Below, one piece after another: positions 14,406 through 14,698 of a stretch of DNA of 14,698 nt. Location: the UHGV virus genome UHGV-0229026, one strand, 5' to 3'. The translations under genes were made by a program, and so were the position numbers. Origin of the DNA: a virus. The first letter of the stretch is position 1; each line of letters begins with the position of its first letter. The notes under the pieces are model-generated. The model was not told where the DNA came from and did no database searches. It saw nothing but the letters and a program-made list of their open reading frames with translations.

Positions 14406-14414
14406 TCATCAGGA

Positions 14415-14591
14415 TATCAATTGTTATTTGTGGTCAATTCTGGGCTTTTTTATGGTGCGCAAATCACCCAGAATTGTGCGTCAATCAGCCCAGAAAAAAT
14501 CGCGAAGTTACAGAATTTTACTAATTTCCAAGCAACACAAAATACAGATCACACAAGAATTATCCTATATGTTTTGACCTATCAATTGTTA
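14415..14591. repeat. 12-bp direct repeat TATCAATTGTTA (14415-14426 and 14580-14591) bracketing the inverted repeat
   Basis: Two exact copies 165 bp apart in the non-coding 3' region; each contains the palindrome CAATTG. Read directly from the sequence. Confidence 0.45.
14435..14476. repeat. Perfect 10-bp inverted repeat CAATTCTGGG - 22 bp - CCCAGAATTG in the AT-rich region after the orphan gene
   Basis: Arms at 14435-14444 and 14467-14476 are exact reverse complements; the spacer contains a T6 run. No T-tract follows the stem on either strand, so it is not a classical intrinsic terminator; a protein-binding (operator-like) site is more likely. Confidence 0.55.
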
Positions 14592-14698
14592 CTCAATGAT
14601 TTATTACAACTATTAATAATCATAATGTGTCAAAACACTTAAGCATCTTTACAGTCTTAGAAAGGTGTCGATTAACGAAGGCTACATGGTGAAAAACA

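Follow-up and report, generated by a model that had tools for sequence, protein, structure and literature searches.

The question raised by the end of the virus genome UHGV-0229026 is what kind of DNA makes up its last 293 bp (14406-14698 of the 14,698-nucleotide stretch that was analysed, hereafter the window), a region that carries several repeats and lies 3' of the stop codon (TGA, 14403-14405) of the last gene. The G+C content of this region is 33%, compared with 54.5% in the rest of the window. Two 10-bp arms, namely CAATTCTGGG (14435-14444) and CCCAGAATTG (14467-14476), form an inverted repeat with 100% complementarity and 22 nt between them, the 12-mer TATCAATTGTTA occurs in exactly two copies in the window that are 165 bp apart, and an ATG at 14686-14688 is preceded by AAGG at 14678-14681. 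These features, together with the lack of a credible open reading frame (ORF), had been recorded in an initial annotation made from the letters alone, and all of them are confirmed at the positions given there. The initial annotation offered a regulatory operator, a recombination site or a module junction in a mosaic prophage as possible explanations, with a gene starting at the ATG as a candidate target of regulation, and named the identity of the DNA 3' of the repeat and the conservation of the repeats in related prophages among the matters to be settled. With high confidence, the best explanation of the whole stretch is that it joins the right end (attR) of a Mu-like prophage to the PR3 promoter region of the kps capsule cluster in Escherichia coli, and hence represents an ordinary mobile-element boundary and no new regulatory element.

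To resolve the composition of the stretch, 14300-14698 was searched by megablast in 5,426 complete E. coli genomes. The segment 14300-14512 matches prophage copies only, of which there is a handful, the best being the copy in strain 54214 (99.5% identity), which lies beside carB. The segment 14513-14698 matches more than 1,600 phage-free chromosomes with up to 100% identity, for example that of Nissle 1917, and no record among the 5,426 genomes contains both halves together. The junction is resolved to the base, as the window reads GCGAAGTTACA followed by gaattttac, strain 54214 reads GCGAAGTTACA followed by acttcaccg, and the empty site in Nissle 1917 reads ctccag followed by gaattttac. The 293-bp stretch is a composite of a phage end and unrelated host DNA, with the prophage ending at 14512 and the host chromosome beginning at 14513. 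The only ORF of at least 50 aa in the stretch (73 aa, TTG start, 14421-14642) spans this junction and is not credible. A second, mosaic junction was found near 14422/14423 by comparing eight distinct related right ends, a set that also underlies the conservation values given below; here, variable cargo meets a conserved end. The earlier idea of a module junction thus applies to two boundaries, prophage/host and cargo/end, while the stretch is not one element. The coordinates of all features are collected in Table 1.

Table 1. Features of the prophage right end and of the adjoining host DNA (positions in the window).
Feature	Position	Strand	Basis or remark
Last prophage gene ("orphan gene")	13305..14405	+	3' of tail-fibre and tail-fibre-assembly genes; ORF list
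Phage copy of the 12-bp repeat TATCAATTGTTA	14415..14426	+	Variable cargo/attR boundary
R3, putative transposase-binding site	14423..14444	+ (inverted relative to R1 and R2)	Core TTCTGGG 14438-14444
Spacer R3-R2 ("loop")	14445..14466	.	22 bp
R2, putative transposase-binding site	14467..14488	- (same orientation as R1)	Core TTCTGGG 14467-14473
R1 and prophage tip	14489..14512	-	Ends 5'-...GCGAAGTTACA-3'; similarity to prophage copies ends precisely at 14512
GAAT, predicted right-hand copy of the 4-bp target duplication	14513..14516	.	Empty Nissle 1917 site ...ctccagGAATtttac...; 4 bp in 9/9 relatives
E. coli chromosomal DNA, PR3 of kps region 3	14513..14698	-	Identity to phage-free chromosomes; kps annotation
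Host copy of the 12-bp repeat TATCAATTGTTA	14580..14591	+	kps PR3 upstream region
Start of 33-codon ORF	14686..14698	+	Host DNA, unannotated

The phage to which the left half belongs can be recognised from the strain 54214 copy, which is a complete 35.2-kb prophage between carB and caiF. Its gene order begins with a repressor, a Ner-like helix-turn-helix protein, a 680-aa protein annotated as "Mu transposase C-terminal domain" and an AAA+ ATPase, continues with GemA, Mor, lysis, terminase, a Mu gpT-type head, sheath and tube, and tape measure, and ends with a Mu gp45/46/47/48-type baseplate, a tail fibre, a fibre-assembly protein and one hypothetical gene, after which the element ends. In Pfam, the transposase matches Mu-transpos_C and HTH_Tnp_Mu_1 above the cut-off and rve below the gathering cut-off. 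The window is the tail half of such a Mu-like element, and the pair of a MuA-family transposase and an adjacent AAA+ ATPase is found in the 99.5%-identical 54214 copy, the window itself holding the tail half only. Among the 5,426 complete E. coli genomes, 122 carry related right ends and 60 related left ends, and the last 2 kb of the window have no megablast match among 50,697 phage records. The prophage family is best described as uncharacterised but recognisably Mu-like, and its right end as an ordinary attR.

Both junctions could be read for nine independent simple insertions at nine different loci, namely carB/caiF, dtpB/uspA, the inside of another Mu-like prophage, eutC (in the enteropathogenic strain E2348/69), agaF/agaE, fliH, a site near yigF, a site between fadR and ycgB, and mhpT. 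The insertion inside another Mu-like prophage is that of JNE21-009 (L005 1-515 and 35771-36301), where the element lies between DNA-circularization and baseplate-assembly genes. A look-up of the tail-fibre protein yielded ten loci, comprising nine new insertion sites with different host flanks and the 54214 copy again but not the locus of the window, and 18 distinct host flanks are known besides that of the window. The tips read TGTGGGG... and ...GAAGTTACA in all nine insertions, and the phage part of the window ends in ...ACA at 14512. No integrase or invertase is annotated in four full-length copies, those of 54214, RIVM_C036569, JNE21-009 and E2348/69. Given the scattered sites, the shared tips and the lack of an annotated integrase, the element inserts as a transposable phage and not in an att-specific manner.

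The target duplication is 4 bp long in all nine insertions (ACTT, CGGT, CGAA, CACT, CCCT, ATTG, AATC, AATG and ATTC), and subtraction of the phage and of one 4-bp copy from E2348/69 restores an intact eutC that is collinear over 300/300 nt in 5,380 genomes. Two longer duplications were considered and rejected. A 5-bp duplication with ends TGT...TAC would need a host-derived terminal A. It fails at the site of the window, where the base 5 bp ahead of the left tip is G, and in five of the nine insertions, which have C, G or T there, while the right junction always has A, so that the fifth base is not host-derived; a 5- or 6-bp duplication with the left tip shifted by one base fails in 9/9. Strain F163 was not counted as a tenth insertion, since the final A is missing from its right tip, which adjoins a phn deletion. 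The F163 copy (L018/L019) ends in ...GTTAC and adjoins a truncated phn gene, which suggests a deletion beside the right end and not a simple insertion. For the window copy, a simple insertion predicts a left junction of TTATCTCCAGGAAT directly followed by TGTGGGGT; the corresponding pattern CTGATTATCTCCAG-N3-6-TGTGGGGT was not found in genome_contigs or metagenome_contigs, nor was the exact right junction found in genome_contigs. The target duplication is 5 bp in Mu and 6 bp in B3 and in Leptospira prophages, and a "5/6-bp scar" has been taken as diagnostic (PMC8705779). A literature search for 4-bp duplications in Mu-like phages found no report.

Against this background, the two kinds of repeat in the stretch have different origins. 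The 12-bp repeats had been described as flanking the region, but nothing is flanked by them. The phage-side copy is part of the variable cargo/attR boundary, with columns that differ in E2348/69, STEC316, M8 and others, and it is also present in the 54214 copy, whose host flank contains no second copy; a second copy is likewise missing from the other insertions. The host-side copy is present in phage-free Nissle 1917 (L001 2568-2579), inside the segment that matches more than 1,600 genomes. With one copy belonging to the phage and the other to host DNA of separate origin, the repeat is a coincidental phage/host match. This bears directly on the proposal of site-specific recombination, according to which the region would be an integrase attR or an invertase crossover, with the 12-bp repeats as a duplicated att core. 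Such a system would suit the position at a prophage end, the exact direct repeat that brackets the region, and the inverted alternative tail-fibre cassette found nearby in relatives such as E2348/69. However, one copy is 86-97 bp to the phage side of the true junction and the other 68-79 bp to the host side, the host copy occurs without any phage and other insertions do without a second copy, the annotated copies encode a Mu-type transposase and an AAA+ ATPase but no integrase or invertase, and insertion takes place at scattered sites that have different 4-bp duplications, so that this explanation is extremely improbable. The recombination site of the initial annotation survives in a broad sense, as a Mu-like right transposition end, but not as an integrase att site, the repeats being off the junction.

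The inverted repeat, by contrast with the direct repeat, is part of the phage end itself. The heptamer TTCTGGG is present in three copies in the 14.7-kb window, all of them inside the 58 bp from 14438 to 14495, and in ten copies in the 35.2-kb 54214 prophage, six of which are at the ends. In the latter, the right-end cores start 18 and 40 nt from the tip and face inward, with a third, inverted core at 69 nt, and the left-end cores start 18, 92 and 143 nt from the tip, all facing inward. The right-end cores belong to three sites of ~22 bp, named R1 to R3 from the tip inward, which share the core (A)TTCTGGG(C) and are putative transposase-binding sites. The left arm of the inverted repeat, CAATTCTGGG, is the 3' part of R3, while the right arm, CCCAGAATTG, belongs to R2, the core of which is 22 bp from that of R1; the 10-bp inverted repeat consists of the core-proximal parts of R3 and R2. 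By analogy with Mu, the terminal CA (14511-14512) would be the point of cleavage and joining.

In the eight right ends compared, 22 of 24 columns are invariant in R1, 14 of 22 in R2 and 13 of 22 in R3, the latter including the whole AATTCTGG core. The spacer between R3 and R2 has 5 invariant columns of 22 and a mean pairwise identity of 0.63, and is poorly conserved except for CTTTT beside R3; its length is 22 bp in seven relatives and 21 bp in strain M8. None of the 25 columns in the 25 bp interior to the right end is invariant, and the conserved end thus measures ~90 bp (about 14423-14512). This pattern of conservation supports a function of R1, R2 and R3. In the prophage of E2348/69, the final 78 bp of the right end are 83% identical and keep R1, R2 and R3 in register, and this prophage and its E. 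coli relatives share the same left-end plan, the same tips and the 4-bp duplication. They differ in the DNA further inside: E2348/69 has an inverted alternative tail-fibre cassette beside attR, other relatives have a DUF4376 tail-fibre set, and in relatives with other cargo the homology to the window begins only at about 14423. As to the conservation of the repeats in related prophages, the arms of the inverted repeat are conserved, while the 12-bp repeat is not conserved where the cargo is another one. A sequence in the 22-bp spacer, TGATTTGCGCAC, resembles the outer half of R2; its reading as a fourth, direct half-site was considered and rejected, as the relatives do not conserve it.

Another alternative is that both repeats are meaningless and owe their existence to chance in DNA that is AT-rich and of low complexity. 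When the 293 bp were shuffled 3000 times with dinucleotides preserved, 0.9% of the shuffles had an exact direct repeat of at least 12 bp, and 2.3% had an inverted repeat whose arms measured at least 10 bp and whose loop was at most 40; both repeats are locally uncommon, yet not extraordinary when the whole 14.7-kb window is considered as the search space. AT-rich DNA raises the rate of chance repeats, and for the 12-bp direct repeat, with its copies from separate DNAs, chance is indeed the explanation. For the inverted repeat, however, the arms are conserved blocks of a right end that prophages in 122 of the 5,426 genomes share, whereas the intervening spacer diverges, and all three TTCTGGG copies of the window fall within 58 bp, so that chance as an account of both repeats is highly improbable.

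A regulatory operator, in which a dimeric regulator would bind the two 10-bp arms and control the gene at 14686 or another neighbour, would account for a perfect 10-bp symmetry in non-coding, AT-rich DNA, which only 2.3% of the shuffles reproduce. The geometry is, however, not that of an operator, as the arms are 32 bp apart from centre to centre and their sequence recurs at the R1 tip and, at a distance of 35 kb, three more times at the opposite prophage end. The DNA 3' of 14512 is unrelated host DNA that is different in each of the 18 other insertions, so the site and its supposed target do not stay together, and a scan of 14250-14698 for the sigma-70 consensus returned no promoter-like site (0 sites). 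The supposed gene at 14686 is a 33-codon ORF in host DNA, the Nissle 1917 equivalent of which translates as MVKNRFLQCYRTFRGGLEGDKSCYIGTQPGELV followed by a stop. It has no annotation in the RefSeq genomes listed under the match, and Nissle 1917 has no annotated coding sequence between kpsM and yghD (see below); it is probably not a gene. The operator is largely refuted by the multi-locus distribution and must be regarded as most unlikely, and with it falls the suggestion that the region controls a downstream gene, as what follows 14512 is simply unrelated chromosome.

A further possibility is that the inverted repeat acts as a nucleic-acid structure, i.e., as a terminator of the last phage gene, as another RNA element or as a DNA cruciform. 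RNA folding of 14396-14512 gives -38 kcal/mol with a z-score of -4.3 relative to shuffles, and a T-run follows GGGC at 14445-14450. The predicted fold, however, pairs R3 with R1, which is an expected by-product of inverted motif copies, and a terminator scan returned nothing at the inverted repeat, its only hits being one hairpin within the gene and, on the minus strand, a weak one at 14401-14413. Rfam at gathering thresholds returned nothing in the window. Moreover, the motif copies at the left end are direct and cannot form this hairpin, and in JNE21-009 all six sites, at both ends, read TTCTGGA. This concerted change fits recognition of the sites by one protein better than a local hairpin, which leaves a structural role very unlikely. 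The transposase of JNE21-009 is 88% identical to that of 54214, with differences that cluster at residues 1-40 and about 137-185, and a comparison of the sequences suggests co-evolution of transposase and sites.

The attR reading of the left half implies a mechanism that is modelled on phage Mu. A DDE transposase of the MuA family, whose gene lies at the extreme left of the prophage and thus outside the window, would bind R1-R3 and the three like-oriented left-end sites, L1-L3, and pair both ends in a transpososome; it would then nick after the terminal CA (14512), and the 3'-OH ends would be joined to staggered phosphates of the target DNA, with a stagger of 4 bp in this prophage family. From the analogy with Mu we infer both the binding of the transposase to these sites and the role of each of them, whereas the junction, the spread over many loci, the arrangement and conservation of the sites, the duplications and the family of the transposase are shown by the sequences.

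The end layout of Mu was read directly from NC_000929. Counted from the left tip, its cores (CGAAA) are at 22, 127 and 167 nt and are all direct; counted from the right tip, they are at 22 and 44 nt, followed by an inverted one at 57 nt. The prophage of the window shares this plan, with L1 at the tip and L2-L3 further in, all direct, with R1 and R2 contiguous and their cores 22 bp apart, and with an inverted R3. Likewise shared are the terminal 5'-TG...CA-3', three sites of ~22 bp per end, AT-rich ends, transposase and AAA+ ATPase genes near the left end, and structural genes of the Mu type (gpT head, gp45-48 baseplate). In contrast to Mu, the R2 and R3 cores are 22 bp apart (8 bp in Mu), the target duplication is 4 bp (5 bp in Mu), and there is no gin/mom module, the last gene being one of unknown function. 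The transposase is nearer to those of Pseudomonas VW-6B (49%), Mannheimia vB_MhM_3927AP2 (40%) and the D3112 group (~30%), over more than 90% of its length, than to that of Mu. The L1-L2 spacer of the prophage family (CCTGCAAGCCTTGTGTG; L003, ~50-65 nt from the tip) resembles that of Mu (CTTGCAAGCCTGTAGTG; L021, ~84-100 nt), although the cores are unrelated; this likeness may reflect a shared host-factor site or chance.

The host half answers what lies 3' of the repeat. The segment 14513-14698 is 100% identical to L001 2501-2686 of Nissle 1917, where it falls into an unannotated gap of ~1 kb that separates yghD from a 777-nt gene for an ABC permease. The annotation of Nissle 1917 reads kpsFEDUCS-kfiDCBA-kpsT-kpsM, gap, yghD, and these surroundings identify the 777-nt gene as kpsM, a member of the K5 group 2 capsule cluster; a JUMPstart element is found by Rfam 29-67 nt upstream of kpsM in Nissle 1917. 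The promoter PR3 was located 741 bp upstream of the kpsM start codon and has a -10 but no -35 element, and H-NS protects -135..-21 and +141..+219 at PR3 (PMC8960920). With the kpsM ATG at L001 1778, a distance of 741 bp would place the PR3 +1 at L001 2519, corresponding to 14531 on the minus strand of the window, which is consistent with a TATTTT hexamer at 14544-14539. By the same arithmetic, the phage junction would be at about +19, and the upstream H-NS footprint would cover about 14552-14666. The absence of sigma-70-like sites in the scan mentioned above fits the published lack of a -35 element at PR3. By analogy with the K5-cluster literature, the AT-richness of 14513-14698 can be attributed to the known H-NS-silenced, H-NS/SlyA-bound promoter region, which would fire leftward (minus strand) into the prophage end.

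Compared with the DNA upstream of kpsM in the K5 strain Nissle 1917, the host half of the stretch is identical, but here the prophage cuts the promoter from its 5' untranslated region (5'-UTR) at about +19. On the assumption that kpsM lies beyond the left end, the prophage separates PR3 from kpsMT and region 2. PR3 would then fire antisense into the phage. A minus-strand hairpin, CCTGATGATCAGG then CTATATTTCT, at 14401-14413 extends across the stop codon that closes the last phage gene and is terminator-like toward transcription coming into the prophage, for example from PR3. At the other side of the element, the phage repressor gene reads outward over the left end in the 54214 copy, and it would face kpsM here. 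It is possible, with slightly less than even confidence, that the transpososome of this E. coli lineage attacks target strands 4 bp apart, unlike the 5 or 6 bp reported for every transposable phage characterised so far, and that the insertion in the window also uncouples kpsMT and region 2 from the thermoregulated PR3.

Several observations weigh against parts of this account. On the phage side, the core TTCTGGG is unrelated to the CGAAA of Mu, and the transposase is only 23% identical to MuA (pairwise E = 5e-7), so that the analogy with Mu is one of architecture and not of close homology. The prophage works like Mu, yet it stands outside Mu proper (Muvirus) both by the length of its duplication and by the lack of a close similarity of transposase and sites. 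The assignment of the sites relies on position, repetition, conservation and analogy, and the co-variation of sites and protein is only suggestive, because Z1323CEC0011 (L012/L013) is a hybrid whose left sites are of the TTCTGGA type and whose right sites are of the TTCTGGG type. On the host side, a better-looking -10 hexamer, GATAAT at 14564-14559 (minus strand), would move the PR3 start ~20 nt upstream, and the 741-bp distance was measured in another K5 strain, so that the mapping may be off by a few tens of nt; with either start, the prophage would still come between PR3 and kpsMT, given a kpsM beyond the left end. Finally, a simple, intact insertion with kpsM across the prophage is assumed, as the transposase gene and the left end are outside the window.

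The last prophage gene, which directly precedes the conserved end, has no Pfam match, belongs to PHROG 8291 ("unknown function", E = 3e-239) and is a hypothetical protein in the annotation of strains 54214, RIVM_C036569 and JNE21-009. Sequence comparison indicates that it is variable cargo, which other genes replace in related prophages, and second tail-fibre sets occupy its position in relatives. The 3' ~125-129 nt of the gene (14250-14378) show 86-94% identity to "hypothetical protein" genes in many E. coli genomes without this right end. Further upstream, the Mu gp48-like baseplate gene (10918-11910) is intact in the window, with 330 codons, and encodes 318 aa in three other copies (L025, L027 and L029), while the annotations of 54214 (L003 3364-3927), RIVM_C036569 and JNE21-009 give it as a truncated pseudogene ("YmfQ family protein, incomplete").

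The main value of these results is a correct annotation, as a repeat-rich and AT-rich stretch turns out to be a prophage boundary that needs no new mechanism, and the junction 14512/14513 delimits the prophage exactly. Only two points are of wider interest, namely the 4-bp duplication and the insertion at a capsule promoter. If the 4-bp duplication is true, prophage finding by 5/6-bp scars would miss this group or set its ends wrongly, and the family would provide a natural variant of the MuA family for studying how the spacing of target strands is controlled. The insertion in the window would place a prophage between PR3 and kpsMT/region 2, within the first few tens of nt of the 5'-UTR, and should hence alter or abolish the temperature-regulated expression of a major virulence determinant, unless phage read-out from the left end substitutes for PR3.

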